From IMG/VR virus record IMGVR_UViG_3300023714_000001: DNA of 64,000 bases. One strand, given 5' to 3'. This DNA is from a virus. Taxonomy: Duplodnaviria; Caudoviricetes. This document shows positions 1,830-53,756 of the stretch, piece after piece; the first letter of the stretch is position 1; every line of letters starts with the position of its first letter. The position numbers were made by a program, and so were the translations under genes. The notes beneath the pieces are model-generated. The model was not told the DNA's origin. It worked only from the letters and a program-made list of their open reading frames with translations, and searched no databases.

Positions 1830-2226
1830 TGGTGGAGCTGAGGAGAATTGAACTCCTGTCCAAAACACATCCACTTATAAGACGTTATCGCAATAGGCAT
1901 TTTTAAGAGCGCCATTCTCTAGGGTGTAACCAGCCGAACAACGATGCAATGGTCTACACCTCCACCACCTGCTTTTGAGAAAAACAGGAAAACATCCATT
2001 TATTTTCGTCAGTGGCTCCTGACGGTGCTGTGTTTATTTGAAACCTATCGCCCTGCTCACAGCTAGTGATACGATAGGGGCTAACTAATCTACCGTTAGG
2101 GCAGATTAGGCAGCGAGACGATATTCAGCTTCGTCAGTTGAATTTAGTGGTTAATGAGTTAGGCTTCATAACCATCGGCCTGCGAATCTTACGGCTTCAA
2201 TATCCTGTCGAAACCTTTACAGCCCC
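1830..2226 (-). ncRNA. ssrA: tmRNA; tag peptide (A)DEAEYRLAA*
   Basis: 5' GGGGCTGTAAAGGTTTCGAC, 3' T-arm GGAGTTCAATTCTCC plus CAGCTCCACCA with Ala acceptor G3.U pair; tag frame GAC GAA GCT GAA TAT CGT CTC GCT GCC TAA at 2135-2106. Confidence 0.95.
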
Positions 2227-5131: not shown

Positions 5132-5399
5132 TTGTGTTTCCTCCCTTATTTTACCACAAAATCATTTCCTTGACACGTATGATACAATAGGTATTAGCTG
5201 AGAATATCGAAAAATGTTTGCCATCCTTCGCAAAACACTTATTTGCGCCCCGTAAGGAGCGTTCTCGTGGAGCGGCTTAACTCCGCGATACATGTAGGCT
5301 TGGTATGGGATAACAGTTCACAATCTTGAAAGAGACCTCGTGATCTGCCCGCCCGCCGAAGTTTTGTCTTGTTTATTCTATAGAAAGGACGGTACAACT

Positions 5400-9739: not shown

Positions 9740-10582
9740 TTACGCAGCATCGATGGCACTCTGCATGCGAGAGCGGAGATTGGATTGCTCTTTCTTGATG
9801 ATGCGATAGGTTGTTGATATAGAGGTATTGTATTTTTTAGCGAGGGCTCTTATAGAGTATTCTCCCGTATTGTAGTCGCTAAAAATCTCTGCGGCCTGAC
9901 TATGTGCTTCTGACACCTTGCGGGGGTAAGAAGCATTGTTAGTGTCAGATACAGTGTCATTCTTTTTAGGTTGAGTATTGTCCTGGATTACAGCCATACT
10001 GTTTTTCTTACGCTCAGAGCGGATAAATCCCATTTTCCCCAGAGCTTCTTCGGCATCCACAACTTTCTCCCCTGCTTCAATCAGGTTTGCAAGCGAATCG
10101 ATATTGTACTCGATTTCAGGTTTTAATGCGCTAGATAAAATTCCATTACGGAAAACAAACGGGCCGCGCGGATAATCCCCCTCAGCACCACTATCGATGA
10201 AAAATTCTTTATCTGCTACGACGCCTGCGGCCTCGCACTTCTTCCATAATGTAACGGGAACTTTTACTAATTCGCAGTCATTGCAGAGGATATCCTCAAG
10301 AGCATACCCTTCTTTTAATAAATCGTCTTTTGTTTTTGGGGTGTTGCTGCTTTTAGGCCAAAATAACATACTGTCCAGACCAAACTGAGCGCCAAGCCAC
10401 CTTGTCACGTCTGCCTTGTTAAGCATTACAGGTGCGAGATATTCCTCTGAAATATCATTTGCATCAAGATTGTCAGATTTGAGGTTATACATCCCCGTCG
10501 TTTCGTTATAAGCAGAAACGGTAAAAATGCGTCCATTGTTTACGCAATATACTTCGTCGCCCGGTTGATATACTATTTTCAT
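9740..10582 (-). CDS. protein with a C-terminal helix-turn-helix
   Basis: SIRALAKKYNTSISTTYRIIK HTH; ends IDAA. Confidence 0.65.
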   Translation of the reverse strand: MKIVYQPGDEVYCVNNGRIFTVSAYNETTGMYNLKSDNLDANDISEEYLAPVMLNKADVTRWLGAQFGLDSMLFWPKSSNTPKTKDDLLKEGYALEDILCNDCELVKVPVTLWKKCEAAGVVADKEFFIDSGAEGDYPRGPFVFRNGILSSALKPEIEYNIDSLANLIEAGEKVVDAEEALGKMGFIRSERKKNSMAVIQDNTQPKKNDTVSDTNNASYPRKVSEAHSQAAEIFSDYNTGEYSIRALAKKYNTSISTTYRIIKKEQSNLRSRMQSAIDAA

Positions 10583-27264: not shown

Positions 27265-28200
27265 GCCCTAAGATGACTGCTTCCTCTTCCTTATCTCCTT
27301 CGCGAAGGCAAACGAATCTGCCAAAAGCAGAATAAAAACTATCTTTTGCCAGTGCCTTATCCAGCTCCACCAATTTTGTTGGCGTTTTACCGAGGATATT
27401 GTCTTCGAGTTCTCCGATAACGGAGATATACACGCTCGTACAGCAAGGAAATTCCTTCCCGCCCCGAACCAGAGTGCTTTCCCTTGCTTTCGGAAAATTG
27501 ACGAAATAACTGATATTGCCGTCAGTACCAGTCAAAGGGTGGGCGTCCATAATATTTTCTACTTTGGCTTTTACCTTCTTAATCTCTTCTTTAGAGAAGA
27601 TATACGGGAACGTTCTGACCCGAATCATTCCCGATATCGTTACGTGCTTTTTGTGTTCCATCAGACGCCCCCTACCTTTCAACAATACTCTTTCAAGTCT
27701 GCCAAATACCTTCTCCGGTAACGTATCCCGACACATCGTAAAAAATCAATGATGCGTGAACCACCAGAAAACAAATCCGATACAGAAAATAAGCAACAGA
27801 ACAGGTGCAAGACATCCATCGGCTTTCTCCTGATCCTGTTTTACCCAGTCCTGTGCATCTTCATTGCCAAACAGTGCCATGATATTGACGAAGATAAAGA
27901 ATATGATTAAGACACCTATACCTCCGATAATCATTCGAATCACCTCCCTGTCCTATTTTACAATATCCTGCGCCTAGCCGCAATATTATGCAGCTATCGA
28001 ATCATTGCGGAGTTGTTCTCGCTCTCGATTCTTCTCAGCTTCCCTGTGTCTTCTTGCGACACAGCGCATCTCTTCTATTCTTGCTTCACAGCGCTGAAGT
28101 TTTCTTCCTTGTACAACAATATACATGGAAAGACATACAACTAAAAGAATCAAACAAATATTGAGCATAACCTCAAACTGAAGTACATTGTCGGTAATCA

Positions 28201-29145
28201 TCAAGCTACTCTCCTCCGATTTTTGTTTGTCAAATCCCACGCTTCATCGACCAAACCATAGCATCTATCGATACTATAGCTGTAGCTCGTTGCCGGATAA
28301 ATACGGAAAATCTTATCATACGGCAGCATAACTGGTTTTTCTAGCTCGATTTCGAGCGGGCCGCCGCCACCATTCCAGCTATCATAAAGTCCACACATGG
28401 TCATGGTCGGGATGTAAATATCCTTTTTATTCTGGACAATATCGATAAGCTGGCCGAGCGTAAAAGTCTTTAAAAAGACCAACGCCGGCATATGACTTGG
28501 CATATTCGCCAGTTCCTGAAATACACTGTTTAAGAAGCCATCTTTACGGAATGTTGAACTGTCTGTTTGTGTACACAGGAACTTGAGGAATTCTTCCTTG
28601 CTGTACCCTTGGGTTTCTGCCAGCCAAAGCAGTGACGCTTTTTCGGTTTCCTCAAAAATGTCATCCGGGTCATCAATCCATTCCGTTCTGCCATTATAAT
28701 GCGGGTACATGGCGTTACTGACAAAATCATAGTCGCTATCTCCCGTGTCCACGTAAATATCCACGCGTACGCGCTGCTGGAGAAAATGCTCGGTGGGATA
28801 AATGACATCGAGATTATCTCGAACGCATTCCTTAATATCATCCAGGTCTTCATCTGCCAATGCAGGAATCTCTTCCATGGCGTTTTTAGCAATCTCTTCA
28901 TACTCAACGCCATCATAGAGGCCGTACGCATAATACATCTTTTCATTAAAGGCTGTTCTTGGGTCTTCGTCTTCCAGAATCTCACGAATTGTGCTATCCT
29001 GCAGACAATCGTTATAATCTGCATACAATTCGTAGCTATGCGGATATTTAAGCTTTAGCCAATTTTTAATCAGCCCTTCTGCAACCATTCCATTTGTTTG
29101 CTGCATTTTGTTTCCCTCCTGCCCTGGGTTAGAGCCCTGCTCCAA
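28201..29145 (-). CDS. hypothetical acidic protein
   Basis: 314-aa ORF. Confidence 0.65.
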   Translation of the reverse strand: MEQGSNPGQEGNKMQQTNGMVAEGLIKNWLKLKYPHSYELYADYNDCLQDSTIREILEDEDPRTAFNEKMYYAYGLYDGVEYEEIAKNAMEEIPALADEDLDDIKECVRDNLDVIYPTEHFLQQRVRVDIYVDTGDSDYDFVSNAMYPHYNGRTEWIDDPDDIFEETEKASLLWLAETQGYSKEEFLKFLCTQTDSSTFRKDGFLNSVFQELANMPSHMPALVFLKTFTLGQLIDIVQNKKDIYIPTMTMCGLYDSWNGGGGPLEIELEKPVMLPYDKIFRIYPATSYSYSIDRCYGLVDEAWDLTNKNRRRVA

Positions 29146-32312: not shown

Positions 32313-34987
32313 AAACCCTCCTTTCTTACGCTACTTTAGCGTCTCGCTGTTCTGTTTCCTTAAGCAGCTTTTCATACTTTTCTTTCCAGTGTTTACGGTA
32401 TCTATCCTGGACAGCCAGCTTTTTTCTAAGGTCGCCGTTTTTGCGGTACATATCTGTCCAGCTAAGGTCGCGTTCTGTCATTTTCTGTCGCAGATCTTTA
32501 TTCTCTGCTTTTAATCGCTCAATTTCTTTCTTCGCTGCTTCATACTTGTCATCGGAATCTGGATTGTTGTCGCCATTAATAGAGTCTCCATCAGACAGCT
32601 TTTTGCCGATAAAGTTGTACATACCGATGCAGTCAATAGCAAAGCCTTCTTTTGCTACCATATCCTCAAGGAGGTGGAGGATTTTTGTCTCGGTTTCGAC
32701 GGCTTCCTTATTTTCTTCAGCCGAGCACTTTCCACTTTCAAGATTGCGAACGATTGTGCCATATGTTGCTTTAAGCTGCCAAAGCTCATTTACCTTGCCG
32801 CTTAACATGTTATAATTGTGGCGGCGGGCGGCCACTTCCCCAATTCCCTTCGCTGTTTCGATAGTGTCTTTTTTATCCATTGCAACTCGTCCTTTCTTAC
32901 GCAGTCTTTTTATCGTCAATATTGTATGCTTTTACCACTTCTTGTCCTACCCGATAATTAATGAAAGCCGGATATATCAGTATAGTGTCAATACACTCCC
33001 TGATGATTTCTTCGCTTACGCCGGTGCCATCTTCACCATCTCTCAGAAGCCCTTCTTCAGCTCGCAGCGACTTCATTTTGAGCTCGCCAATAATCCTAAA
33101 GGCCTTAACCGCTTCATATGCATCGATCGCGCTTACGCCGCTATCTTTTAACAGCGCAGCAATCTTAGCCGGCGCCAATTCTGTATTCCGGCTATGTTCT
33201 TCTATCCACTTACTGATAGTTTCGTTCATTTTCATTTTCCTTTCTTATTCATACCGTCAGTTCATGGGCGTTTATTTTATGCGCTCAATCAGTTTGCCGT
33301 TTTGGATAACAACTTTGCTTGTCAATTCATACTCTACGATTTCTTCCAGCTCAAATTTGACTTTCGGAAACTTTTTACTAATGGCCGGCGCAATATCTTC
33401 ATTGCAAATATAATTTCCCCACCAGTTAAGTTCCGTGCCATCGTCACTATATTTAACCTGTTCCATACCCAGACAATCCGCTACGTGCATATCCCAAGGG
33501 CGGGAATAAGTAACGTAAGCGTCCGGCACATCATCTTTGACCGGCTCAGCTACCGAAAATCCTTTGCTAAGGAATTCTTCTTTGTCTTTCAGAAAAGCTT
33601 TTACGCGGTAACCTTTCTTAATCTCCTCATCGTAGTTTACGCCGAGTTCACGAAGGTCAATAACTTCCTCCAGTATTCTACTTGTCACTTCTCCGTCACG
33701 GTTGTAACGGAACACTTCATGCGGGCGGACAAGGCTTCCCAGTAAATCCTTAATCGTTATATCTCCGTCTGCCACTTTGATTCTCTGCATAACAAAAACG
33801 CTCATTGTTACTCCTCACTTTCTTAAATCAGTTTGTAACAACTCTCCAAACTGCCGGTACTTCTCAAGATCCTTTTAAGAGTACCACTTATGAACTCTAT
33901 CGTAAGCATCAGCTACTTCTTTGCAACCTGCGTCCACAAGAAACTCCGCGATAATCTCATCTGCTTCTTCATGGGCAGTTTCGATGTCAGGACTGTTCTG
34001 ACAGGCTTCCAACATCTTAATTGCTTCTTCCTCGTTCATGTTCTCGCCCCTCCTACTTTTCATCTGCTTCTTCAGGTGATGAAACTCAGTATTCAGGAGT
34101 GCAGCCGGGAAAAGCCGCTCTCTCTGAACGGTCTATGTCATAATGCCACAGGCCATTCTTGAATACCATCTTTTTAATCTTGACGTCTGTCAACTCTCCA
34201 CACCAATAAGGCGTGCAGAATTCCACTTGTCCAGATTCGGGATTAAATATCCCGTTTGCCGTCGGGCAGGAGAAGTACTCCGCCCAATCTCCATCTTGAG
34301 GATTTTCCACCAGGATTTCCTTCGGATGAAACATATGGTCGATTCCATACTTGTTGACCTGTTCGATTAAATCGAGCGGGTCGATAGTGAAAATAGTTCC
34401 CTTGCTATTTGTCAGTTTCATATTTATTACCTCCTAATTTTTCAACCGGCAAGATGGCAACTCAACATTTCATAGGTATCAATATCTTATGCCGTTACTA
34501 TATCTGCAGCAATTTTATCACAGACTTCGCAGATTTCTTCTTCGGAAGCATCACTCATATTGCCGGGGTCATAGTCGCACACCAGTTCAATACTTTTAAG
34601 AGATTCAGCATCAACACCTTTGCGCGCTAATCTCTTGAGCCAGTAATCCCGCCGAGCAATCTGGACGTCTTCAATCACTCCCCAGTACACGCAGGCGTTG
34701 TAATCCGTATATACTGAAGCGTAGCGGCCCAATAAAAATCTAATCTTATTCATCTTTAACAACCCTTCTTCTTACTCAAAGCCGTATATACTTTGGTACA
34801 TTTACAGGGTGTTCCTATTCCAAGGAACGGGAAGCAGCCAGTTATTCTCCTGCGTCCATATATTTTACGCAGCGCGCCCGCGGGCGGCTTCTTCCCCTGC
34901 AGACAGTACGAAGCTTTCATTATCTTCTTAGTCTCAACACTCGCGATTATCATGATTCAACTTTCCTTTCTGCTATCCTCATGAGTT

Positions 34988-39582: not shown

Positions 39583-41595
39583 TTACGCGGCGAATTTTTT
39601 AACCATACCGTTCTTGTTGGCAATGATGTGTCTCCTCCTGCCGGGGAACTGTATGTACTCAAATCTCCAGTCTCCTTTTGCCTTATGGTTATAAGCTCTT
39701 TTATAAGTCTCTACCTTTAGTATCTTATGGATATGACATACTATATAGTTATTTAACTTAATCTGAGCTTTAACTGTTAAGAAGATACATGGACGAATAT
39801 CGCCGCGGACGGATACAGTCGGTTTGACTATGATATAGTCATCTTTGTATCCTGGGATAACGGTAAGCATTATGCCGCAGCCATATTTTAAGATGTCTGC
39901 TACCAGTGAATAATTTGGCTTACCTGTTTTGATGGTATAGAAACCATGTTTCTCTGCAGCCGCTTTCAGGGTTATACAGCCAGTGATATCCGGTTCACTG
40001 TTATTTGCAGGCAGATTATTATCCGTGGCAGTCAAGGCCGGCGTAGTATTTGCGTCTTTGATGGCTGTAGTAATATTGCGCCCGAGCTGGTTAATCATCT
40101 TACTGATGAGGTTTGTATTCTGGGCAGACTGTTCTACAGCTGTGCTGATTCTTGATACGAGCTCACCATTCTTATCTATGCGCTCAGTCATCATTTGTAC
40201 GAGCTGAGCCATAAGCTGCGTATTTTGTGCAGCAATCTGTGAGTTTTGCATAACCAGATGACCAAACTGCTTCATTGCCTCAGAGTTTTGTACAATGACC
40301 TGCTGTATGTCTGCCGCAACTTGCGGGGACATATACGCTCCGGTTTTGCGAATCTGTTTTAAGATTGCCTTAACCTGCTTCTTGAATTGCTTGGCGATTG
40401 GTTTGCGGGACTGCATTAAGACTTCATACAGACCGTCCTCGGTGAGGAACCATGACTCTTGCACTCCACCAGGGGTCGGAACAATCTTCCGAACCTTTTC
40501 TTCCTCCTCAACCGTATTCAACATTTTGTGTACGGAAGATCTGTCGTACTTAATCATCTCAGCCACGTCCTTGGCCAGGAACAATGGTTCTTCTGCCGTG
40601 CCATACACGGTAAAGTTTCTACCAAGCACTTCCTGCTCGGTTACAATCTGTAATTCTGCGCTCATAGGTTTAGCGCTCTCTCCCTCTGCCTCTCCTTCAG
40701 TTTTCTCTTGTGGAGTGATATTCTTTTCGGGCGGCAGCTCGTCCAGCCATTCCATATCGTCATTGCTGCCAACCACCGCACAACCGAACCAGTCGGGGAG
40801 CTTTTCTTGAACCTGTACTTTTGTATCCGGGATGACAATAGGTTTAGGAGACTCTCCCACTGCGGTGGAGTTCATGTCGTCAATCATCTTGTTGAGGCTT
40901 TCTCTAATATCCTTATCCATGCGCTCGCGATAAGTATCAGAATTAATAATCTTCTGAACGGCGTCCAGAGTCACAAGCCACTGCTTGCGTATCTTACTCT
41001 TGTTACCAAATGTCTCTATGATATTGACTTTTATCTTTTCATCGGCGCCGAGGTTTTTGGCCAGTCTGCTGCCGTCATATCCTCCCCACGAACGTTTTAC
41101 AAAATTTAGCCATGCGCATAAATCTGTGGCTTTGACCAGCAAATTTTGCATACCTGCGTCGTAGAGATGATAATTCTGTCCGCCGATTTGAAAATCTGTC
41201 AAAATTTTGACCCTTTCGCCGTGGGCGGTAAAAATTTGCTCCGGTTCTGCAGCGGGTAAATTCTGTGCCGGAATTTTGTCTTTGGATTTGCCTTTGCTAT
41301 TTTTACTCAACATCTTACACACCTCTGTCTTAATGTTGTCACGCTCTTTATCAAGAGACGCGTACGTCAGTATGGCCAGAAAACCTTTTTCTTCCATAAG
41401 GTAATGGCCTTCGGCTTTTTGGAATAATGCTCTTTCGTAAGGATCAAACTTACACAGAGCCTCAATAAACTCAAAGAGTTCTGCATGCTTGATTTTATAC
41501 AGCCTAGCTATCTCTTTGCTGGAGATAAGCTTTTTGTCTGCTACGTGGACGATGTCTATACTATCCATGACATAATCTTCCTTTCTGACTGTCAT
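39583..41595 (-). CDS. multi-domain antirepressor-like protein (Rha-like N-terminus, BRO-N)
   Basis: ISSKEIA; EEPLFLAKDVA..FLTEDGLYEVLMQSRKPIAKQFK; ends KFAA. Confidence 0.8.
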   Translation of the reverse strand: MTVRKEDYVMDSIDIVHVADKKLISSKEIARLYKIKHAELFEFIEALCKFDPYERALFQKAEGHYLMEEKGFLAILTYASLDKERDNIKTEVCKMLSKNSKGKSKDKIPAQNLPAAEPEQIFTAHGERVKILTDFQIGGQNYHLYDAGMQNLLVKATDLCAWLNFVKRSWGGYDGSRLAKNLGADEKIKVNIIETFGNKSKIRKQWLVTLDAVQKIINSDTYRERMDKDIRESLNKMIDDMNSTAVGESPKPIVIPDTKVQVQEKLPDWFGCAVVGSNDDMEWLDELPPEKNITPQEKTEGEAEGESAKPMSAELQIVTEQEVLGRNFTVYGTAEEPLFLAKDVAEMIKYDRSSVHKMLNTVEEEEKVRKIVPTPGGVQESWFLTEDGLYEVLMQSRKPIAKQFKKQVKAILKQIRKTGAYMSPQVAADIQQVIVQNSEAMKQFGHLVMQNSQIAAQNTQLMAQLVQMMTERIDKNGELVSRISTAVEQSAQNTNLISKMINQLGRNITTAIKDANTTPALTATDNNLPANNSEPDITGCITLKAAAEKHGFYTIKTGKPNYSLVADILKYGCGIMLTVIPGYKDDYIIVKPTVSVRGDIRPCIFLTVKAQIKLNNYIVCHIHKILKVETYKRAYNHKAKGDWRFEYIQFPGRRRHIIANKNGMVKKFAA

Positions 41596-42977
41596 TTACC
41601 TGACGCGGCTTGAGTTATGCGGGCTCGCTTACGCTCGCCCGCTAAATTATACCGTTCTCTATATGTACATTCATTCATATATTTCTTTTTATCCTAATAG
41701 CTCTATATACACTTTTATTTCTTACACACACATAATGAGTATGTGTGCTGCATATATAATAAAGAGGATTAGGAGATATGAAAGAATATGTGATAGGGAA
41801 AGAGAGATAGAGTATACGGTCTATCTCTCTGTTGGTGGATATGAGATATACACATAAAGAACAGTACAATTTGCGCGCCGGAGGACGCGCGTGGTTATTT
41901 CCATGCGGAGAAGATGTAAGAACTCTTTGCGGGCGGAGATATAGAACTCGCCCTTTTAAGTAAAGAGGTAATCTTACAAAAAGATATCAACTTTTTGTCT
42001 CTAATAGACTATATAAGTGATATCTTTCCGCATGAGTGTTTGCCGGGGCTCACTTCGTTCGCCCCTTAATAGGGGCATGACTTAATATATACATTCTTTT
42101 GTCTTTCTATGTATATATTTCGTTCTGCCCTTCGGGTAGGTCGTATACTATTTTTTACAATGTCTGTAAAAGTTAGTATACTTTTTAAATATTTGTTTTC
42201 TTTTTTCATATGCTCGCTACGCTCGCATATATAAACAAGCTCTGTTCTTTTTGCTTGTTTGATTAGTTGTTTGGGGATTAATATTGTTTGATGTGCTCGC
42301 TCGCTTCGCTCGCTCGCACTAACAAAATATGAGCTTTTGATTTTTTCTTGTTCATCTGTCAGGCAGTTTCTTATTTGTCTGCGCTCACAAGGTCTGACCG
42401 AACAAGTATATCAATCCGCGCTCATAAGGTTGGGCTGAAGGCCTGGAGCCTATATACGGGGTGGTGCCTTAATATCTCCCGTGGTGCAGTTCTGCGGGCG
42501 GGCGATGATAAGTCCCAACCGGGATGTGTGCAGACACTTAACAGTCTGTTTAACTAAAAAGTGTCTTAGAGGTCTTTCTTCTTGTCTCTTTTGGGTGGGG
42601 AAGGGGCCGGCAACCATATCCGTTTTGGTATTTGTGACATAAGCTATTGTTCTGGGATAGGTTAGTGTTCTGGATAATCTGTATAGCTTTTCTAAATATG
42701 TCACAACAACCATGGTGCTTATCTCACTCCTTTCATGAGTACGAATTTCTGCGGCAGGATTACTTACGAGCGCGAAGTTTTCGTTGCTCCTCTTTGAGCC
42801 TTTGGATTTCGCGCTGGTCTTTCTCTATCTCTATTTCGATAATCTGGTTCACTTCGGAACCTATCTCGAACAGAGCGTATAGCAGTGCAAGAATAACAGT
42901 ATCCTCCTTCGGGTCATTTTAAGTATGCGTAAAAAAACAATCCGCCCGCGAAATTGCGGACGGACGTTTTTTGTAAA

Positions 42978-43799
42978 TCAGGCACACGTTGTCCAGTCGG
43001 ACTTGGTGCCGCCTTTGGAGCCAAAGAGCAGGCCGCCAATATCGGAGCCCAGACCTTTCACTTCATTCCAGGCGTCCCGAACGTCCTTATTGCGGGAAAG
43101 TTCACGGGCGGCGGCTCTGCCGTTGCGGATAGTCGTAGCAAGCGTTGCGGCGCCAACCGAAACAGCGGCAGTCGCAACAACCCTGCCTGTGGTCATACCG
43201 GCATTTACGACAGCCCCTGCCGTCGGTGCAAGGGCGCCATTCAGCGCGTAATCAGCAACGTCCGTTGCGAACGTGGTGACGGCTTTAGCAACTGCCTGCG
43301 TGCGGTCTGACCAGAGCTTGATGTTTGCCTTGCGCTGGATAAGCTGTAAATCCTCGGCGTTAACACCAGAGAGGATAACTGTTTTTCCAGCGTTGCTGGT
43401 TTCGTAGCTGTCTTCATAACCAAGGCTGTCCAGCAAGTCCAACAGGTTGTTGGCTTCCTGACGGCTCTCAAAGGTTTTGGAGAACCTCTCCTGCACTACC
43501 TCGCCGGTTTCACTGTCGATGGTTACCTGTGTTTCTTTCTGTTCACTCATTTTGATTTCCTCCTGTACATTTTTTGCAACTTCCTGTGCAAATTCATCAG
43601 CAATCTGGTCGACGCTTTTTACTTCTTTTGGCGCCGGCTCTGCTTCTTCCGCCTCTCTGGGCGGTGGTGTGACATCGATGGGGTCTTGCTTTTTCTCCTG
43701 TTTTCCTTCAGGCGTAAGCAATGTATCGATGGTATCATTCAGGAAGCTGAGGATAGGGTCAGCCCCCTGAGTGTTTTTTGTATCTTTTTGCGTTTCCAT
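42978..43799 (-). CDS. hypothetical protein, acidic N-terminus and Ala/Gly-rich hydrophobic C-terminus
   Basis: 273 aa, AGGAGG RBS. Confidence 0.7.
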   Translation of the reverse strand: METQKDTKNTQGADPILSFLNDTIDTLLTPEGKQEKKQDPIDVTPPPREAEEAEPAPKEVKSVDQIADEFAQEVAKNVQEEIKMSEQKETQVTIDSETGEVVQERFSKTFESRQEANNLLDLLDSLGYEDSYETSNAGKTVILSGVNAEDLQLIQRKANIKLWSDRTQAVAKAVTTFATDVADYALNGALAPTAGAVVNAGMTTGRVVATAAVSVGAATLATTIRNGRAAARELSRNKDVRDAWNEVKGLGSDIGGLLFGSKGGTKSDWTTCA

Positions 43800-44201
43800 T
43801 AAAATCCCTCCTCAAGGGGCAACCGACTATCAAGCGGCAACCGGCATAACTGCGTCTTCGATAAGGTGGTAGTCATAGCTGACCTCTACTTTGTACAGCG
43901 AACGAAGCTTAAACCGGCTGTCTGCGCATGGAGTGCGGAGCAAATTGATTACGTCGCGGCTGATAAGGCCGTATTTATCCAGACAGGTCTGGGGGATTTT
44001 GGCGGAGATATTTACCCAGCCATTGGCGAGGTTCTTAGTGAGACTCCAATTTACTTTGGAATTTGCACGGTTGGATTTCGGGAATACGATATGTTTCGGG
44101 CATACTTTGTTCATAATCATTTTGGTTTCCGTCCTTTCTTGACGATAAAAACAAACTGGGCCATCAACTGCTGACAGCCCAGTCTTTTTACATGTATTTG
44201 C

Positions 44202-45140
44202 TTATGCGGCAAAATCGATGTCATCTACAGCTTCTTCAGCCGGAGCGTCGATGCCTGCACCTTCGTTCACAATGGCTTCACTGCGGTCCGTGTTGTCCTT
44301 GATGATAATCGTCTTGTTGACGATGGACAACAGGTCACGGGCGGTTTCCTGCTCGGAGCCTTCTTTGATTTCACGGCCAACAACCAAAGAACCATTGGCT
44401 TTTACCAGTTTGTGCTTGCCATTGAGCTTGAAGCCGGAAGCAAGGCTGATGCGATAATTGCGCCCCTTAAAGGTCGTGGACGCAAAACCTTTACTGAAGG
44501 TCAGCTCCATGTTTTCCATATCCAGCGGCAGATTGCTGTACTTCAGCTCCCAGCCAAAGATGGCGTTGTGACCCATCACACGGATGGACTTAAACTTTTC
44601 GGGCGCCGCCTTCAGGTCGAGGAATACACCTTTCGCATAGGCAATGTAGCTGTTGCCATACTTGCTGGCATTGGTCGGGCTGGAAATGTGCTCAACTTCT
44701 TTTGCCGTGAGCACTTCGTTGGAACCCTTGCTAATGCGGTTGAGCATGCCGGAGATGCGGCGAGCCTCAAAGTCATTGACATAAAGAATTAAATGGTCTT
44801 TGCCATACTCTGCGGCCTTGTGGAGAGCCTGACGTACACCGTTCAGCGTTGCAACGGGCGCGGTCATAACTTCGCCCGTCTTCTTGTTTACGGCCTTGGC
44901 TACAACAGCGGGCTCAACGATTTCCTGGGCAATATCGCCGGCAACCAGACCGACGTATCCGCGGGAACTTACAACACTCATGATAACCGTGTTGTTCTTG
45001 AGCTCTTCTTCGCGTTTTGCGCGGGCTTTTTCCGTCAGCACATTGGTTGCCTCCATCTGCTTATCGAGGTTTGCCATCAATGCTTCGCGGCGGGATACCT
45101 TGTTTGCTTCTGCCTTAATCATTTCGTTTACGTTTGCCAT
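44202..45140 (-). CDS. hypothetical protein
   Basis: MANVNEM start after AAGGAG; ends DDIDFAA. Confidence 0.7.
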   Translation of the reverse strand: MANVNEMIKAEANKVSRREALMANLDKQMEATNVLTEKARAKREEELKNNTVIMSVVSSRGYVGLVAGDIAQEIVEPAVVAKAVNKKTGEVMTAPVATLNGVRQALHKAAEYGKDHLILYVNDFEARRISGMLNRISKGSNEVLTAKEVEHISSPTNASKYGNSYIAYAKGVFLDLKAAPEKFKSIRVMGHNAIFGWELKYSNLPLDMENMELTFSKGFASTTFKGRNYRISLASGFKLNGKHKLVKANGSLVVGREIKEGSEQETARDLLSIVNKTIIIKDNTDRSEAIVNEGAGIDAPAEEAVDDIDFAA

Positions 45141-45337
45141 AAATAAAACACTCCTTTTTCTTATCCCGCTTTTTATCAGCATTTCGCTTCAGCGGGCTAC
45201 AAATGAACATTTCTGGACTACTGTCCGTTTTCTGGGGTTACGACGGTGAAAGGATAAAATCAGCTTAGCCCTGCTTACAGGAGACAGACGTAAGTTAGTT
45301 ATATAATCTGTATGTATGCGGGCGGAAAAATCCTCTC

Positions 45338-45370
45338 AAAATAAACAAGACAATCGTCTGCGAAGCAGAC
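45338..45370 (-). promoter_or_regulatory. hairpin + box element
   Basis: Plus strand AAAATAAACAAGACAA-TC-GTCTGC-GAA-GCAGAC. Confidence 0.65.
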
Positions 45371-45864
45371 AAGAGTTCTGTTCTTGGAAAGGGGATTTTT
45401 ACTTTGGGATTCAAGCCTTTCATAGCGCGCCGAAAAATGTAGGAGGCAACAAACATTCTTCGACGTACTATGAGGGGCTCAAAGCTCCTCTTTTTGCCAA
45501 GGTGGGGGTTTATGCGGCGGCCTCTGCCTCTTTGTCCACAAGATGCAGTAAGTCACCATAGGTGGTATGGGCGGTGAAGAAAATGGTCTCGCCGGCCTCG
45601 CTTTTAAGGCGGGCGGCTGTTACGACGTTTCCTTCAAGGGTGTCCCTGCGGATAATGTCAAGTTCACTGCCGCCACTTACGATATGGAAGCTATCGCAAA
45701 GAGTGGTCAGCCTCTTGGCCGGCAAGAACCGGTAGTAGCTTTCAGGGAATATGCTTTCCAGGTCATTCTGAAATACCATATGTCATTTCCTTTCTTTGAT
45801 AAAAAAATAGGCCCCTGACGCATAGGGGAAGCCCATAGGGGGTTGGGGAGCGTCAGGAGCCCAT

Positions 45865-45894
45865 AAAAACAAAGCAATATCGCCCGAAGGGCGA
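45865..45894 (-). promoter_or_regulatory. hairpin + variant box element
   Basis: Plus strand AAAAACAAAGCAA-TA-TCGCCC-GAA-GGGCGA. Confidence 0.55.
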
Positions 45895-46382
45895 AGTGGA
45901 ATTTGGACGAAGACGGCACTATCCAGACAAGAGGATAATTACTTGCGGCGTCTCCAGCCAAATATCGGTTATGCCGCTATTTTATACTCGGCATACTTTT
46001 CTTCCGCAAGGCGGTCATAGTCCCTGCGGGTCATCTTCCGCTTGGCGCGGTCACGAAGCATTCTTGCTTCGCGGCCTTCGCTGTAGATGCGGTTATGTTT
46101 ACGGATTTTTTCTGTGTTTGCATTTGTATTGAACATGATTAGCAACCTGCCTTTCTTAACGAATGTTTCTTGCGACGGCGTAGAATACAACCGCGCCGGT
46201 TGCAATCACGTCTACTGCCTGTTCTGCTACGGCCTTGGCTCCACCGACAAATTTCTGCCGGCAGGCCAAAACCTTCTCGTCACTTACTGCCTTGTCGTCT
46301 CCTAAATACCATTTGATAAATCTTTTCATATATATTCAGTCCCTTCATTTTCTAAAAATCAACAGCAAGCGACGCAAGTTTT

Positions 46383-46790
46383 TTACGCGGCTTCTTTGTC
46401 GATTACCGGCTCGGTAGTAAAACTGCCGTACGGTTTAATGTGTTCGTCTTTGACCGGAGTGCGGTACTTCTTGCATACTGTATCAAGCTCACCCTCCAGG
46501 ATGTTTACCGTGCTCTTGCAGAGTTCGAACAGACTCTTGCCAACGCCGATTACGTTCTTGATGAGACCAGCGTTGCGGCTGAAGATACCCAGCACATCGC
46601 AAAAGAAATTGTCGTTGCTGGCAATGGTGACAATAGCCTCGCCATCTACATGGTTCACGCTGAAGCGAATGGGGCCATCTACTTCATACTGGTCTTCACG
46701 GGCAAAGGTCTGGCCGAAGGATTCCATCAGCTTCTTTACGGCGAGCATTTCTTTAGCGTTAAAATACATTTTCATTTCCATGGTGTTCAT
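46383..46790 (-). CDS. hypothetical protein
   Basis: 135 aa, AAGGAG RBS; ends KEAA. Confidence 0.7.
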   Translation of the reverse strand: MNTMEMKMYFNAKEMLAVKKLMESFGQTFAREDQYEVDGPIRFSVNHVDGEAIVTIASNDNFFCDVLGIFSRNAGLIKNVIGVGKSLFELCKSTVNILEGELDTVCKKYRTPVKDEHIKPYGSFTTEPVIDKEAA

Positions 46791-46832
46791 TCTCCTTTTC
46801 CAAAACTACACAAATATTTTCGGGCAAAAAAA

Positions 46833-46982
46833 TTAAGCCGCTTTGCGGGCGGCTTTTTCTTCCAGCGTATTTGATTTTTGTGTCTTACGAGCTACAAGCT
46901 CCAAGGCTTTTCTGATTGCCTCAGCTCTTTCAAACCGTGTTCTCTGGTCGCCCCATTCAATCGAGATGTACGTCTTTTTCAT
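46833..46982 (-). CDS. 49-aa protein ending RKAA
   Basis: GAAAGGAG RBS; below the ORF-track size cut-off. Confidence 0.6.
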   Translation of the reverse strand: MKKTYISIEWGDQRTRFERAEAIRKALELVARKTQKSNTLEEKAARKAA

Positions 46983-47023
46983 GATAAACGCTCCTTTCAC
47001 AATGCGTCCAAAAAAATCATCTC

Positions 47024-47056
47024 AAAATAAACAAGACAATATCGCCCGGAGGGCGA
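47024..47056 (-). promoter_or_regulatory. hairpin + box element
   Basis: Plus strand AAAATAAACAAGACAA-TA-TCGCCC-GGA-GGGCGA. Confidence 0.65.
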
Positions 47057-48900
47057 AACGGCAGTCAGTGGGTATATCTCTTTCTGTTGTTGCGGGACTC
47101 TTTCTTGGGAAAGTAGGTTTCCTGAATACTTTCCCAAATGGCCGACAGAATTACCCAGCCAATGAGAATGACAAAATACAAGATACCTGCAAGAAAGAGT
47201 AAAACTATCCAGACTTCCATTTTTCAATTCCTCCTAAATCACGATGCGCGGCGTATAATGGCCGGGCGATGGATACGGTCAAAGATTGCATTGACAGCCA
47301 TGCGGGCGGCCTGCTGAACACTGTCGCACCCTACAGCTTTGCCATTAGCAAATACCGTGAATGGTTTGCCCTGCGGCTTATCTTCCTCATCGAAGTCCGA
47401 CACAATCTTGCCGTCTTTCATCAGCCAGCTATAAGCTGTTTCTCCGGTAAGTTTGTCCCTGTACTTCGTAGTGCAACCATGTCGCGATACTATCTCCCAG
47501 CGGTCAAAGGAGCCGGGAAGATAATGATGGATAACCAGCTCGTAGGCAAGCGTAGCAAACTTGCCGTAGGTTACGTCCCAAACAGGAATTATCATAACAT
47601 TATTACGGACGATTTTCAATGCATACTTTTTCATGGCATATCTCCCTTTCTATTTTACGCTACACCATTTTTCTCTGAATAAATGGGCTCTCCACTCCAC
47701 GTTTTCCAAAGATATGGATATTCCTCGCGGATTCTGGACATAGGCAGACTGATATGCCGGAAGTCTTTTTGGCGAACTCCCTTGTAGGCATACCATACAG
47801 TATGGTTAATACCGAAGTATTCCAGTAACCTGCTCACCTTTTCTGCCGTGCAAAGCGACATGTCTACACTGGCATACTCGCGGAGCCAGCCACTAAATTC
47901 CCTTGCCTCAAAGCTTATGGCAAGACTGCCCACTTCGGTTTCTGTAATATCGTTTCCTGCAAACATGGGTGCGCTGCATTCACTCATCACCATATTACAT
48001 ACTTCCAAAGCAAGCTCGGTGGAGCAGAGCCCTGTCATCGAGCCACGCTCTTCATTGAGCTTATTTCTTAATTCGTCTTTTGTCATTGTTTGTGCTCCTT
48101 TATTTTTTTGCACTGGCCGAGGGCCTTTTTTACCAGTTCTTCTTTGGTCACGCCTTCCTGATAAGGGAACACTCCCCTCCAACTGGCGGCGTAGTTTATA
48201 CAGTTCGGCTCTTCCTCGCGCTCCATAGGATGCACATCTTCTGCCGTTGCAAACACATATGGTCTTGAAAGCGAACCATCTTCTGCTTCCCAGATAGACA
48301 CGCAAATGTTTTGCGGCTGGAAGTTTTCACTTTCTGCAACCTCATGCTCTATAATGTGTAAACATGGTTTGTTTGACAGCACGGCATTAAAAGCATTTGC
48401 TTTTGCCACGAACACTTCTGCGTCCTTGCGGGCGGCAAATACCTGTTCGATATTCACTTCAGGAGTTCCGTCATAGTATATTTCAGATTCCACAACATAG
48501 ATAGTCATAGCTACTCTTCCTTTCTGTTATAGAGAAAAACAAACCTTCTCAAAAGCATGATAAAAAGAAAACACCGGGCAAACCACAAAATCAGCTTGCC
48601 CGGAGAAGAAAAATATCATGACTTTGAGAAGGCCCCAAACAATATGTTTGGGAACCTCCCCTTTTGTTTTTTACTATAGGAGGGAGCAACCCCTTGCCTT
48701 AGGACTGCTCACACATGACACCAGAATATTATTGAGTTCTAATATCTGATATCATCTGTGAGAAGCCATAACGACCTCTCCTGGTTTTGTGCAAGTGTCG
48801 AGAATGCTGGAACATTCTTCCTGTGCACATAACCGTTCCATCTGTAAGTGTCGGAAGCATTCCAGTACTTCTCCTACACGTCAGGAACAATCTCTCATAA

Positions 48901-48929
48901 AAAACAAGACAACCGTTCGCGGAGCGAAC
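48901..48929 (-). promoter_or_regulatory. hairpin + box element
   Basis: Plus strand AAAACAAGACAA-CC-GTTCGC-GGA-GCGAAC. Confidence 0.65.
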
Positions 48930-49272
48930 AGCTGTCTTTAACTCAGAAACCTCGATGTCAATCCAACTGATATGCTGTGCCGTATCCATAGAAGACGATA
49001 TTGAACATACCGTCGAATAGGCTGGGGTCAATGCGATAACCTTCCCACGACTCCGTTATGTTATCCTGGAAAGACTCGGTCTTAAGGTCAAAACCGAAGT
49101 ATTGTTTTGCGTTGCTGTCGTTGGGGTCGATACAGGAGCTCCATTCATTGCCGCCATCTTCCTCCTCGACAATATATCCGATTTTATCAACGCCAATCTC
49201 TCTAATCTTCTTGTTAAGCTCTTTTACGTCAAACATTTTAGTCTCCTCCTGCAGAAAACAAAAAACATATTC

Positions 49273-49308
49273 AAAATAAACAAGACAACCTATCGCCCGG
49301 AGGGCGAT
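49273..49308 (-). promoter_or_regulatory. hairpin + box element
   Basis: Plus strand AAAATAAACAAGACAA-CCT-ATCGCCC-GGA-GGGCGAT. Confidence 0.65.
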
Positions 49309-49935
49309 GAGGCACTAACTGGATGGCTCAATGTAAACGAGCGCAACAAAAGCCGCCCGCAATATCTTATGCGGCAACTTTCTCAATGGCACAATTCTTT
49401 ACCGCACCAGCGATGATGCGGCACTTGTTTGCAGGTGAAGATGCAAGATACTCGGCAAGGTCAAACTGGGTAACAACTTTGTACTTGCGCTTCGATGCCG
49501 TAGTAAATACAGCCCCGGCGCTCAGAACAGATTCACTATCCAGTTGGGGTTTCATTCCCTCCTCGGCCGAAGGCCCCGTTGCCACCTTGGGCACCTCGAC
49601 GACATCTGCCTTTACCATGGCCATGGCTACCTGCTGAGGGGTAACGCCCTTAACATTTTGGGCGCGCATTTTCCTTCCGTCTACCCACTCTGCTTTTAAC
49701 AGACTAAGTACACCAGAAGTAATACACCCTCTTATAGCTAAGGGCACTACAAATGCCTCAGAATTAGCCATGGCATTATGCAGCATTAATGCACACAATC
49801 CAAACAGAGCTTTTCTTTCATGTGCAGTCATTTTATTAAGTAACATATTTATACACATCTCCCTTTTTAAGCAATAAAAAATAAGCCCCAGCCATACAGA
49901 CTGGAGCTTACATGTTATTTTTAGTTATTCGTAAG

Positions 49936-49963
49936 AAACAAGACAATCGTCTGCGGAGCAGAC
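49936..49963 (-). promoter_or_regulatory. hairpin + box element
   Basis: Plus strand AAACAAGACAA-TC-GTCTGC-GGA-GCAGAC. Confidence 0.65.
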
Positions 49964-49997
49964 AATGGTAGTAGCCATATCACAACGGACGCATATT

Positions 49998-50222
49998 TTA
50001 CGCCGCGTAATCCATGACAATATTGCTGTCTATTGTCTTTTTAGCTTCTTCAATAAGAGCCTTTACCCGCTTCAACACAGGAGACTTATACCATACTTCT
50101 CCACACTGTGGGCATACTGCTCCAGGAACATTCTTTATAGATATCAGATAACCATTATAATGCGCATAGTATACAGTGAGCTTATCACCATTTATGCTGC
50201 CGCCGCAAGTTGCACAAGTCAT
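49998..50222 (-). CDS. YgiT/MqsA-type zinc-finger protein (putative antitoxin)
   Basis: CATCGG..IKNVPGAVCPQCGE; ends DYAA. Confidence 0.8.
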   Translation of the reverse strand: MTCATCGGSINGDKLTVYYAHYNGYLISIKNVPGAVCPQCGEVWYKSPVLKRVKALIEEAKKTIDSNIVMDYAA

Positions 50223-50223
50223 G

Positions 50224-50547
50224 TTATTTCCTCCTCGTCTTAAAGTCATCTTCCCATTTGTCGCTGCTGGGAATATATGCCGTTATAAGCGATATTTCAT
50301 CATTGTCACCATCTAACCCAACAACCACATGGATAGGGCGCCCATTCATATGTATATAAAACATCAGACATGATGGCAGTGGCGTACTCCATGGACGTTC
50401 CTCTATAACTTCACCATACAATATGGTTTGTTCTACTTCGTCTATGGTTATATTTCTCTCGTCCAGTCGTTCACTGGCGTGGCGAGAAATCCTTACGCCA
50501 TATTGAAGACACAGCTTTCTTATTTTTGATATGTTCACAACTCTCAC
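50224..50547 (-). CDS. DUF4258-family protein (putative type II toxin)
   Basis: SRHASERLDERNI..GEVIE..RPIHVV..ITAYIP..W; directly upstream of the YgiT-type gene. Confidence 0.8.
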   Translation of the reverse strand: MRVVNISKIRKLCLQYGVRISRHASERLDERNITIDEVEQTILYGEVIEERPWSTPLPSCLMFYIHMNGRPIHVVVGLDGDNDEISLITAYIPSSDKWEDDFKTRRK

Positions 50548-50582
50548 CTACTCTAATTATAACAGAGAGAAACAAAGTTCTC

Positions 50583-50614
50583 AAGATAAACAAGACAATG
50601 CCTGCGAAGCAGGC
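50583..50614 (-). promoter_or_regulatory. hairpin + box element
   Basis: Plus strand AAGATAAACAAGACAA-T-GCCTGC-GAA-GCAGGC; no credible minus-strand gene within about 1 kb upstream. Confidence 0.65.
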
Positions 50615-51011
50615 TCGGAGGAAGACATGGTGTAACCCCATACTCCCTCCTGACCGGCTCGATGTGGCAGCGAAAAGACGCCACTTTCCGGCGGTCATCG
50701 CCGGATATCGAAGAAGACAAGTGTATCGAGCCCCTGCCGTATCTGGCGGCCAGGAGCCTGACCAGATACCGCGCATGAAGCCCGAAGGGCGGCTTCGGCG
50801 AGCGAGCAATGTCTCGGACACACGCCATCTCTTTTTGCCCGAAGACAAGATGCAGACCACACCTTTGTTGGTGCGATACCGTTGCGGGCGGCGTGGGACC
50901 GAGACGAGCGAAGCGAGCCGAAGGCCTTTATTCTTATGCTTTATTTTATTGACTTTATCAACTTTATATGTTATACTATATGTAAATAAATGAGTTAGGA
51001 GTGGATGCACG

Positions 51012-51257
51012 ATGATATGTTTAACCGATTCTGAATACGAGGTAGTTAAGCCACTGGGACGGCGGCTTCATTCATTGGTTGCCCACTCCGGCTTAAATGC
51101 AGCAGACATTCGCAGTCAACGCCCAGATATTGTTGCAATGGAAAAGGACCTGAACAATATACTGGGGCCAATAACCGGGCGCAGCTACGATATCATCGAA
51201 TGGTTTACCTATACAACCCCTGGAAGAACCGAGCTGAATAAACTACTCAATTCTTAA
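51012..51257 (+). CDS. hypothetical protein
   Basis: AGGAG RBS, upstream TTGACT..TACTAT promoter-like sequence; counter-oriented. Confidence 0.6.
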   Translation: MICLTDSEYEVVKPLGRRLHSLVAHSGLNAADIRSQRPDIVAMEKDLNNILGPITGRSYDIIEWFTYTTPGRTELNKLLNS

Positions 51258-51320
51258 TCAGGTTCCATGCTTCGTCACACATATCCTTAAATTACAATCA
51301 AGAGAAAAGAAGGGGTAGCT

Positions 51321-51578
51321 ATGAAGTTAACTGATGCACAGCGCGGGGCAATCACCTCAGCAGTAACTGATTATATTGATTATTGTGTAAATGAAGATAC
51401 GGATTCACTGGATATCAAGGACAGCAAACTGTCTTCATTGGCGAGCGGTCAACTCTACAACGTCCTTTGCTTGATATATAATACTGGTGCTCCTGATCAG
51501 ACTATCCAGAATAAGCTGGATAGTAAAGACTGGGGCGCTCCAGAGGAAGTAATTCAATTTATCGAGCTTACTTTATGA
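51321..51578 (+). CDS. hypothetical protein
   Basis: AAGGGG RBS. Confidence 0.6.
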   Translation: MKLTDAQRGAITSAVTDYIDYCVNEDTDSLDIKDSKLSSLASGQLYNVLCLIYNTGAPDQTIQNKLDSKDWGAPEEVIQFIELTL

Positions 51579-52115
51579 TTACCAGCCGCGGCTATTAACA
51601 TCCCAAACAGACATCATAATACCCACCAACTCTTCGCGCTCTTCGAAAGCACGAATAATGGTGGCCTCACTAAAGACACAGGATAATACGGAGTGCATCG
51701 TCTCCATACCATTCTGTGTCTTTTTACTGTCTGCGTGACCTGGCGCAGCAGGATAGGTTCGTGCGGTTACATAACGCGAATCATTATCTGCAATATCCGA
51801 AGATGCATCCCGATCGAACTTTAAGTTTATCCGTACATATCTTGCAGAGTCATTTGTCATAATTTTAAAATCTGTTCCTTCAAACAAGTCTTCTCTCCAA
51901 TCAATATCTACTTTCATAAACAGCCCGGTTACTGAGCGAAAATACCCCAGCATCCATGCCATAACCACTTCCATGTATTTCCCGGCAGGAAAGTCCGTGT
52001 TGCTTAGCCCTTCCAATCTGAAATCGGAAAACATCTTCTTGGACAAGCCGGCCTTAAAAGCCTTTCTTTTAAACACCATTAATTCTTTTGCGTTGTTAAT
52101 ATCTTTCTGAGTCAT
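51579..52115 (-). CDS. hypothetical protein, possible PD-(D/E)xK-like fold
   Basis: EDLFEGTDF..VRINLK. Confidence 0.45.
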   Translation of the reverse strand: MTQKDINNAKELMVFKRKAFKAGLSKKMFSDFRLEGLSNTDFPAGKYMEVVMAWMLGYFRSVTGLFMKVDIDWREDLFEGTDFKIMTNDSARYVRINLKFDRDASSDIADNDSRYVTARTYPAAPGHADSKKTQNGMETMHSVLSCVFSEATIIRAFEEREELVGIMMSVWDVNSRGW

Positions 52116-52484
52116 GTCTCATTCCTCCTATACAAAAAACAAAAAAGACAGACTATTTTTGTGCCGTCTGTCAGGGCAAAAAATAATTAAGCGGCTTCCT
52201 GCATGCGACGCTTGGTGTAAGCACCGCGGATTGCACAGGCTACTGCGAACATGGGATGGCTTATCGGCAGGTCTGCTGCAACATAAGTGTTGCCATCCTT
52301 GAGACTCTTCATGGTTGTGTCGCAAAAAGCCTCAAAAGAAAAGAGGCAGGTTTTATTGCCCGCCTCATCTTCAAGATAACCTTCACGGTCACCAGTGAAT
52401 ACCACATAACGCTTAATAGAAAGTCCGTTATAACTTACATTTGCCTCGATTCTCATGACAATTTCCTCCTAAATAAACAAAAAC

Positions 52485-53756
52485 TTATGCAGCCATATCT
52501 TTCCAGTCGAGCTTTGTACACTCGCCATCTAAGATATGCACCTTGCTTTCCGCCCGCGTTACAGCCGTATAGAGCCAGCGGGCATTGGTAAGCTGTTCGT
52601 TGTACAGCTTGGATGTACCGGTGATATATACTTCCTCCCACTGGCTACCCTGACTCTTATGAGCTGTAATAGCATAGCCATAGGTGCAGATGGTTACAGT
52701 CGGGGAAAGCATCGGGCGCCCACACAAATCCACAAAATCTCTTTTATAGCCATCACGCCAATAGCGAAGGCCGGCGAGATTCTGTGGTGCGATGGAAGCG
52801 CCATTATAGTTAGGTACAAGAATCAAGTGGTGCACCTCACCATCTTCTTTGTACCGATAAAACTCTGCCACAATAGGCAGTGCTTTCTCCCGATTGGGCA
52901 CACGGATAAACAGCTTATCCTTACCCAGGAGCTCAATATTTTCAGGCACCTTCATGGTTTCTCCGTTACGCAGAAAAGCGCCATTGGATATGCCCATGAT
53001 TGGTTCACCTGTCTGCAGAGTCTTTCCGTCAAAGCCGAGTGCTTTACGGACACCCTGGTTGAAGCGAATGCGCGCCTCATTCTTCCAGGTAACCATGGTG
53101 ATATCCTTACCTGCTTTTAGTTTGGCGAGGTAATCATTCCACAGTACCGGCTTACTCTCAACCGATACGTCACCATGGGTAGAGGTTGGGGAGAATGCCG
53201 TCTTTTTCTGGCGCAAAGCTGTTGCCCAATCCAGGATAGCGCTGCCATCACCCTGACGCATTACCTGTGTCAACACAGACTTATATTCATTGTCGAACAC
53301 TGTACGACTATACTTGCCGACAGGTGGGAGCTGGAACGGGTCTCCCATATAAAAGATCTTGCTTTCCTTCTTGGTGGCAAACTCCTCAAGGTCGTCCAAT
53401 AGTTTGTCAGACAACATGGATGCCTCGTCGCAAATGATGAGCAGCCGCTTATCATCGTCATCTTTAGTGGCGGCCTTCTTAATGAAGTTACCGTAACGGT
53501 CAACGGTGTACAGGAGCTTATGTACGGTCATAGCTCCTTTGTTTCCTTTGCGGCGCAACACTTCTGCCGCCTTGTTTGTTGGCGCGATAAACACCACGCG
53601 GTACTTATCTTTCTTGGCAATAAGTGCAATCTCACCTGCCAACGTAGTCTTACCTGTACCAGCATAACCCATAAGTGTCCATGCCAGTACATCGCCTTTA
53701 ATAAGCTGGGCTTCGATATTCGTTAACGCTTCTTTCTGCTGTTTATTCCATTCCAT
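52485..53756 (-). CDS. Dda/RecD-like SF1B helicase
   Basis: GYAGTGKT, APTNKAA, DEASM, GDPFQLPPV, YAITAHKSQGS, YTAVTRA; ends DMAA. Confidence 0.92.
   Translation of the reverse strand: MEWNKQQKEALTNIEAQLIKGDVLAWTLMGYAGTGKTTLAGEIALIAKKDKYRVVFIAPTNKAAEVLRRKGNKGAMTVHKLLYTVDRYGNFIKKAATKDDDDKRLLIICDEASMLSDKLLDDLEEFATKKESKIFYMGDPFQLPPVGKYSRTVFDNEYKSVLTQVMRQGDGSAILDWATALRQKKTAFSPTSTHGDVSVESKPVLWNDYLAKLKAGKDITMVTWKNEARIRFNQGVRKALGFDGKTLQTGEPIMGISNGAFLRNGETMKVPENIELLGKDKLFIRVPNREKALPIVAEFYRYKEDGEVHHLILVPNYNGASIAPQNLAGLRYWRDGYKRDFVDLCGRPMLSPTVTICTYGYAITAHKSQGSQWEEVYITGTSKLYNEQLTNARWLYTAVTRAESKVHILDGECTKLDWKDMAA

Follow-up and report, generated by a model that had tools for sequence, protein, structure and literature searches.

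Proteins ending in Ala-Ala are strongly over-represented in a 211,158-bp rumen phage (Duplodnaviria; Caudoviricetes) known from the virus record IMGVR_UViG_3300023714_000001, which we analysed starting from a 64,000-nucleotide stretch of it (the window, bases 3911-67910 of the record). On the sequences compared, the motif is better given as [Ala/Val/Thr]-Ala-COOH than as Ala-Ala alone, and its presence on ~13-19% of the non-structural proteins is probably best read as a set of genome-encoded degrons resembling the ssrA tag and corresponding to ClpX C-motif 1. Genes were called with a simple self-trained codon-usage tool of our own with greedy overlap removal, which yielded 226 genes covering 88% of the genome; counts are to be read with this caller in mind, most of the Ala-Ala genes being backed by Pfam domains or conserved orthologs.

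Ala-Ala enrichment at the extreme C-terminus

A first-pass annotation of the window had listed 17 open reading frames (ORFs) ending in Ala-Ala, eleven of them between positions 39583 and 53756, as an excess over chance. All 17 do end in Ala-Ala at their stops, 11 of the ~22 genes in that interval share the ending, and the excess is real: genome-wide, 19 of 226 genes end in Ala-Ala (20 with ORF 45510-45779) against 1.5 predicted by the internal Ala-Ala dipeptide frequency of 0.67% (binomial P = 3e-15). ORF 45510-45779, missed by the caller, is taken as real because its ortholog in a related phage, at 56% identity, ends KVAA. Ala-Ala is by far the commonest terminal dipeptide, followed by Val-Ala (7), Gly-Glu (6) and Lys-Lys (6), and there are three Thr-Ala endings. 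Measured against the product of residue frequencies, Ala-Ala is enriched 14.8-fold and Val-Ala 6.6-fold (7 versus 1.1 expected). Three other IMG/VR contigs carry the same gene block with ~50-90% protein identity, and one of these, G001 (235,547 bp, ~70% identical), was compared in full; with the same caller, 18 of its 299 genes end in Ala-Ala. Counting the dipeptide at successive offsets from the end gave 19 occurrences for the last two residues and 0-3 for any one of the nine offsets before them, with the same result in G001. Its restriction to the exact C-terminus fits a signal that requires a free carboxylate.

The genes of the window that carry the ending are as follows (window positions, strand, product, terminal residues, ortholog).

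9740-10582, minus strand: 280-aa protein with Mor/HTH-like C-terminal domain; IDAA; ortholog 36% identical, IDAA
10809-11312, minus strand: 167-aa NrdG-like radical-SAM activase; VMAA; ortholog GVA
27986-28201, minus strand: 71-aa ORFan; SIAA; ortholog EAAA, last 16-18 residues unalignable
28201-29106, minus strand: 301-aa protein; RRVA; ortholog 88% identical, RLAA
29489-29851, minus strand: 120-aa ORFan; ETAA; ortholog EAAA
29905-30618, minus strand: 237-aa ORFan; RKAA; ortholog 60% identical, YVA
32326-32880, minus strand: 184-aa protein; KVA
32897-33235, minus strand: 112-aa protein; KTA
34487-34753, minus strand: 88-aa protein; VTA
39583-41595, minus strand: 670-aa protein with central Bro-N/KilAC-like domain; KFAA; no ortholog in G001
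43830-44120, minus strand: 96-aa ORFan; PVAA; ortholog 81% identical, PIAA
44202-45140, minus strand: 312-aa ORFan; DFAA; ortholog 68% identical, DFAA
45510-45779, minus strand: 89-aa ORF; EAAA; ortholog 56% identical, KVAA
45969-46136, minus strand: 55-aa ORFan; KIAA; ortholog KIAA, both Ala codons changed (GCGGCA to GCCGCG)
46383-46781, minus strand: 132-aa ORFan; KEAA; ortholog 49% identical, NKAA, both Ala codons different and 0 of the 8 residues before Ala-Ala identical
46833-46982, minus strand: 49-aa ORFan; RKAA; ortholog RKAA
47655-48086, minus strand: 143-aa ORFan; GVA; ortholog 83% identical, SVA
49367-49846, minus strand: 159-aa ORFan; KVAA; ortholog 88% identical, KIAA
49998-50222, minus strand: 74-aa MqsA-antitoxin-like zinc-ribbon protein; DYAA; no ortholog in G001
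52187-52456, minus strand: 89-aa ORFan; QEAA; ortholog 50% identical, KTA
52485-53756, minus strand: 423-aa SF1 (Dda/RecD-like) helicase; DMAA; G001 ortholog 72% identical, IAA
61707-62420, plus strand: 237-aa PhoH-like ATPase; KQAA
63139-64000, plus strand (running off the window, to genome position 69043): start of a 664-aa AEP-type primase, the 18th Ala-Ala gene; CQAA

Comparison with G001 indicates that selection acts on the terminal peptide and not on the DNA. The ending is conserved between the relatives: 13 of the 16 Ala-Ala genes with a reciprocal-best ortholog in G001 keep Ala-Ala there, the other three orthologs ending in Val-Ala, Val-Ala and Thr-Ala, and one Val-Ala gene of the phage has Ala-Ala in G001. 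For comparison, 105 other orthologs could be aligned through to the last residue, and 60 of these share the terminal dipeptide. In three pairs both members end in Ala-Ala though the preceding eight residues are identical at only 0-1 of 8 positions or the tails are unalignable. The tail region is hypervariable between orthologs in several ORFans, which suggests that there is little structure there. Genes with the ending also occur in one lineage only, namely the 670-aa Bro-like protein, the MqsA-like protein and the primase in the phage, and 58-aa and 742-aa proteins in G001.

These comparisons bear on whether the feature is a protein signal at all. The ending could instead be a nucleotide feature, with GCNGCN-stop serving termination context, translational coupling, a terminator stem or the ribosome-binding site of the next gene, or it could result from faulty gene calling or from an Ala-rich composition. 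An ATGA stop/start overlap does force the last codon to end in A, and GCATGA is found in 2 of the 19 cases. Against this, all four Ala codons are used at both positions (GCG 12, GCA 10, GCT 8, GCC 8 among the terminal Ala codons), 11 of 26 conserved Ala codons differ synonymously between orthologs, and Ala-Ala interchanges with Val-Ala and Thr-Ala, on which grounds a nucleotide motif or termination context was rejected. The last positions show no excess of other GC-rich codons (Gly, Pro, Arg), the terminal Ala codons are followed by TAA in some genes and by TGA in others, and the downstream sequence varies. An artefact was likewise rejected, given that GCNGCN precedes only 0.54% of 18,862 non-gene stop triplets, that the Ala content of the 39583-53756 interval (9.2%) predicts fewer than 1% Ala-Ala termini, and that Pfam domains or conserved orthologs back many of the tagged genes. 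We therefore regard explanations of this kind as highly improbable. The product of trans-translation, with a tag added from transfer-messenger RNA (tmRNA), was ruled out as well, the Ala codons lying inside the ORFs directly before the stops.

Distribution over modules and origin of the tail

Genes run leftward up to ~64 kb (genome position) and rightward beyond, and the endings are confined to non-structural genes. The structural arm (69.2-175.9 kb) has no Ala-Ala ending among its 75 genes, versus 19 of 151 elsewhere (Fisher P = 5e-4); for all [Ala/Val/Thr]-Ala endings the figures are 0 of 75 versus 29 of 151 (Fisher P = 4e-6), and the same split holds among G001 orthologs (0 of 67 versus 15 of 85). 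The Ala-Ala tails are spread over 9.7-64 kb and over a replication module at genome positions 176-192 kb. That conserved enzymes are among the tagged proteins, as had been noted, stands with Pfam support for the NrdG-like activase, the SF1 helicase and PhoH, to which the AEP primase, the Mor/HTH-like regulator, the MqsA-like protein and the Bro-N protein can be added. For the remaining small Ala-Ala ORFans no matches were found in Pfam or in PHROG (ten searched in the latter). In the other genome arm, the ending is found on the C-terminal part of DnaE (FNAA) and a KilAC protein (ELAA), and in the forms RTA on RecJ and KSA on a DUF1064 protein. The earlier description of all tagged genes as early was not borne out; tails also occur on this other-arm replication module (DnaE, RecJ and others).

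The DnaE gene itself is split by a LAGLIDADG endonuclease gene (genome positions 186595-189223; L019:11595-14223). Its first ORF departs from an uninterrupted relative ~5 codons before the stop and ends KKVA, as does the endonuclease; the DnaE gene of G001 is interrupted elsewhere, with run-on ends (GLI and ALG) that do not resemble degrons. The 74-aa MqsA-like protein (region 49998-50349) matches only the N-terminal zinc-ribbon part of MqsA (E = 4e-7), and its gene lies directly downstream of a 41-aa ORF; the protein might be labile and act like an antitoxin or against defence.

Several of the Ala-Ala genes have in the intergenic gaps just upstream a conserved box, ATAAACAAGACAA (plus strand), that adjoins a short GC-rich hairpin and precedes leftward genes. 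Copies of the box with the hairpin lie at the following window positions.

45316-45372: box and hairpin
45867-45895: box and hairpin
47002-47058: box and hairpin
48875-48931: box and hairpin
49260-49307: box and hairpin
49933-49965: box and hairpin
50561-50599: box and hairpin

Copies with 0-1 mismatch are found almost only at 45.3-50.6 kb (6-7 copies), with one copy in the opposite orientation at window position 5364, and from its sequence the element appears to form a separate class of promoter or terminator-promoter. A tie between the tails and this class was rejected, as the tails extend far beyond 45.3-50.6 kb.

Alignment with homologs indicates that the tail is an addition to conserved proteins, most distant homologs of the helicase, PhoH and NrdG being without it. 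The case is clearest for PhoH, whose homologs end at or just past a conserved ...RGKFSRLAESY; the phage protein and a 93%-identical relative add a basic tail (11 extra residues in the phage) ending KQAA, and none of the other 59 homologs ends in Ala-Ala. Among 120 helicase homologs, those at least 72% identical, G001 included, end in Ala-Ala or Ile-Ala, those at 56-63% identity end SVM, DKM, ALV, SIL or AAL, and one of the more distant ones ends in Ala-Ala. For NrdG, 0 of 150 diverse representatives end in Ala-Ala or Val-Ala.

The likely host and the probable reader of the ending

The host is likely Selenomonas, judging from an NAD-salvage gene of the phage that shows 83-87% identity to sequences from Selenomonas ruminantium, S. 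caprae and Selenomonas sp. WCT3, with identity falling to ~70% in the matches that follow, from Lachnospiraceae. In ~1 Mb sampled from two Selenomonas genomes (941 called genes), only 2 proteins (0.2%) end in Ala-Ala versus ~10.7 expected from the internal Ala-Ala dipeptide frequency, about fivefold fewer (P = 1.5e-3), and the difference between phage and host is pronounced (Fisher P = 2e-12). The first-pass annotation had named an equal frequency in the host proteome as the finding that would count against it; in the sampled host the ending is depleted, and the proposal is thus not refuted on this point. Relative to the product of residue frequencies, host Ala-Ala, Val-Ala and Leu-Ala endings occur at 0.15-0.24 of expectation and, with Gly-Ala and Asp-Ala, are the most depleted endings in Ala that have an expectation above 5, while Glu-Ala, Lys-Ala and Gln-Ala reach 2.4-2.7 times expectation. 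The phage, enriched where the host is depleted, thus favours the very endings that its likely host avoids.

The machinery that would read such an ending is present in Selenomonas. In three genomes clpP lies directly upstream of clpX in an operon, and ClpX has the GYVG and RKH loop motifs, with matches at E = 2e-193 to PDB 6sfw and 1e-145 to E. coli ClpX chains; by its sequence, host ClpXP is canonical and has the loops used in ssrA recognition. The tags encoded by Selenomonas tmRNAs read ANEDYALAA and DEFDYAYAA. The phage has a tmRNA of its own whose tag ends in LAA, as had been noted; besides this gene, the window has five tRNAs.

1830-2226, minus strand: phage tmRNA gene; tag DEAEYRLAA (DEVEYRLAA in G001)

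In the degron reading, the free Ala-Ala carboxy-terminus would be bound after translation by the axial pore of Selenomonas ClpX, which would unfold the protein and feed it into ClpP. The lifetimes of takeover and replication proteins would thereby be short and programmed in the sequence, probably with gradations set by the residues that precede Ala-Ala. Besides small early ORFan proteins and regulators, the tagged set would comprise NrdG, PhoH, helicase, primase and DnaE; the lack of any such ending on virion proteins would reflect their need to last. We infer ClpX binding, degradation and its purpose, be it temporal shut-off, limiting toxicity or recycling, from the features described above. 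Experiments elsewhere support the degron reading. An unbiased screen of C-terminal pentapeptides in E. coli found Ala-Ala at the end of 91% of the 100 strongest degrons, which are ClpXP-dependent; the best single tag ended LVA, and upstream residues modulated strength (PMC10862746). The natural termini of CmdA (Ala-Ala) and M. tuberculosis HigA1 (Val-Ala) are ClpXP degrons that are abolished by Asp-Asp (10.1101/2024.02.24.581848).

Several points weigh against this reading. In the same E. coli screen, 39% of the tags ending in Ala-Ala scored as weak, and those whose upstream residues were unfavourable did not work (PMC10862746). In the phage, a hydrophobic residue at -3 (L, I, V, M, F or Y; Leu in ssrA) is present in only 10 of the 19 tails versus a background of 32%, the other tails having K, E, Q, D, T or N, so that some tails may be weak or inactive. 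The AlphaFold model of the PhoH tail (residues 229-236) has a short terminal helix with a pLDDT of ~86 and is not disordered, so that this tail may not be accessible to the unfoldase, and instability of a replicative polymerase, primase and helicase seems costly. Moreover, the host assignment is based on one host-like gene, the best helicase match among isolated phages is only 31% identical, so that there is no cultured relative (a DNA nearest-neighbour search of cultured phages gave no match), and we know of no study of ClpX specificity in Negativicutes.

The sequence data give selection in the phage, and avoidance in the host, of the [Ala/Val/Thr]-Ala terminus, not the identity of its reader. 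Some other factor that recognises the C-terminus (a further host AAA+ protease such as ClpCP/ClpEP, ClpAP, Lon or FtsH, an adaptor or an unrecognised phage factor) could act on it for degradation, remodelling or localisation, and ssrA tags are in some bacteria handled by further proteases too. A reader of phage origin might also have escaped notice, for genes may be missing from the record, which is rated ~90% complete: a 334,475-bp contig encodes a helicase 98% identical to that of the window, and either much of the phage genome may therefore be absent from the 211-kb record, or there may be a sister phage of greater size. In the record as it stands, possibly incomplete, there is no ClpP, SspB, AAA, AAA_2 or S41 protease domain, and a phage-encoded protease or adaptor was accordingly discarded as a candidate. 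With the strong Ala-Ala and Val-Ala degrons of the E. coli screen being ClpXP-dependent and the ssrA-recognition loops present in host ClpXP, we think a reader other than ClpXP rather unlikely.

A related idea would keep ClpXP as reader and change the purpose. Abundant Ala-Ala early proteins might saturate host ClpXP as decoys, shielding phage proteins or blocking ClpXP-dependent defences such as toxin-antitoxin activation by antitoxin degradation. ClpXP degradation of an Ala-Ala antitoxin does trigger an anti-phage toxin-antitoxin-chaperone system (10.1101/2024.02.24.581848), the LAA tags written by the phage tmRNA point to close interaction with the pathway, and many of the Ala-Ala genes are small ORFans in a dense array with repeated promoter-like elements. 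One abundant substrate would suffice for a decoy, however, and there would be no need for conserved tags on enzymes such as helicase, primase, DnaE, NrdG and PhoH, which are costly to destabilise. The sequence offers nothing to separate saturation from programmed turnover, and the two are not mutually exclusive; as the explanation of the tails, saturation seems to us a long shot.

Other phages, known degrons and implications

In the nearest outgroup fragment (IMG/VR, 63% helicase identity), the only contig examined among relatives with 56-63%-identical helicases, 6 of 21 genes end in Ala and just one of these in Ala-Ala. Of 1330 non-redundant genes from 69 diverse phage loci that surround helicase homologs, 22 (1.65%) end in Ala-Ala versus 7.4 expected, which suggests a general but weak excess. 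One unrelated locus with 65% GC, L198 (IMGVR_UViG_3300001380_000243), has 4 Ala-Ala endings in 23 genes versus 0.3 expected (P = 2e-4, uncorrected for the 69 loci), and from it the trait may recur in other phage lineages. In four low-GC viral loci included as relatives of the helicase (L170, L172, L173 and L215), only 1-5 genes were called per 11-21 kb with the standard code, suggesting stop-codon reassignment in these phages.

The phage endings resemble the ssrA tag and the CmdA and HigA1 degrons in that the chain closes with Ala-Ala or Val-Ala and a free carboxylate; the tmRNA tags of host and phage likewise end LAA or YAA, and Ala-Ala and Val-Ala are interchangeable as in experimental work. 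They differ from the ssrA tag in being gene-encoded and not added by trans-translation. Whereas CmdA and HigA1 are single regulators, the phage tails, as putative degrons, are found on ~20-30 unrelated proteins of one phage, with a hydrophobic -3 residue in about half. Closest among phage proteins is the repressor gp33(136) of mycobacteriophage BPs, whose built-in C-terminal ssrA-like tag subjects it to proteolysis in integration-dependent immunity (PMC4557955). It too is phage-encoded with a tag of its own, which in BPs sets developmental outcome; but there a single regulator of a temperate phage is concerned, and integration removes the tag, whereas here tails are module-wide on enzymes and ORFans of a 211-kb phage, in which we saw no sign of tag removal. 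Single tagged phage proteins are thus already known, and what would be new is the module-wide use of a known degron type; our literature searches found no report of module-wide Ala-Ala tails in a phage.

We put forward more tentatively that lifetime may be written in the last two residues as a general module-wide phage code, by which takeover, regulatory and replication proteins would be cleared by the host quality-control protease, with upstream residues tuning strength and the virion exempt. Were this so, the mirror-image avoidance in the host would show which endings destabilise in a given bacterium, the avoided host C-termini suggesting a simple way to read its degron rules, and phage tmRNA and tagged-protein load may jointly manage ClpXP capacity during infection. 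From sequence alone, terminal dipeptides could then indicate the temporal class of an unknown phage gene and the half-life of its product, providing among ORFans a sequence-only marker for non-structural or short-lived proteins. Phage expression is usually explained by the timing of transcription, and, a few model cases apart, the removal of early proteins has received little study; a conserved destruction tag carried by a tenth of the genes, essential replication enzymes included, would, if true, suggest that proteolysis is a planned layer of infection.

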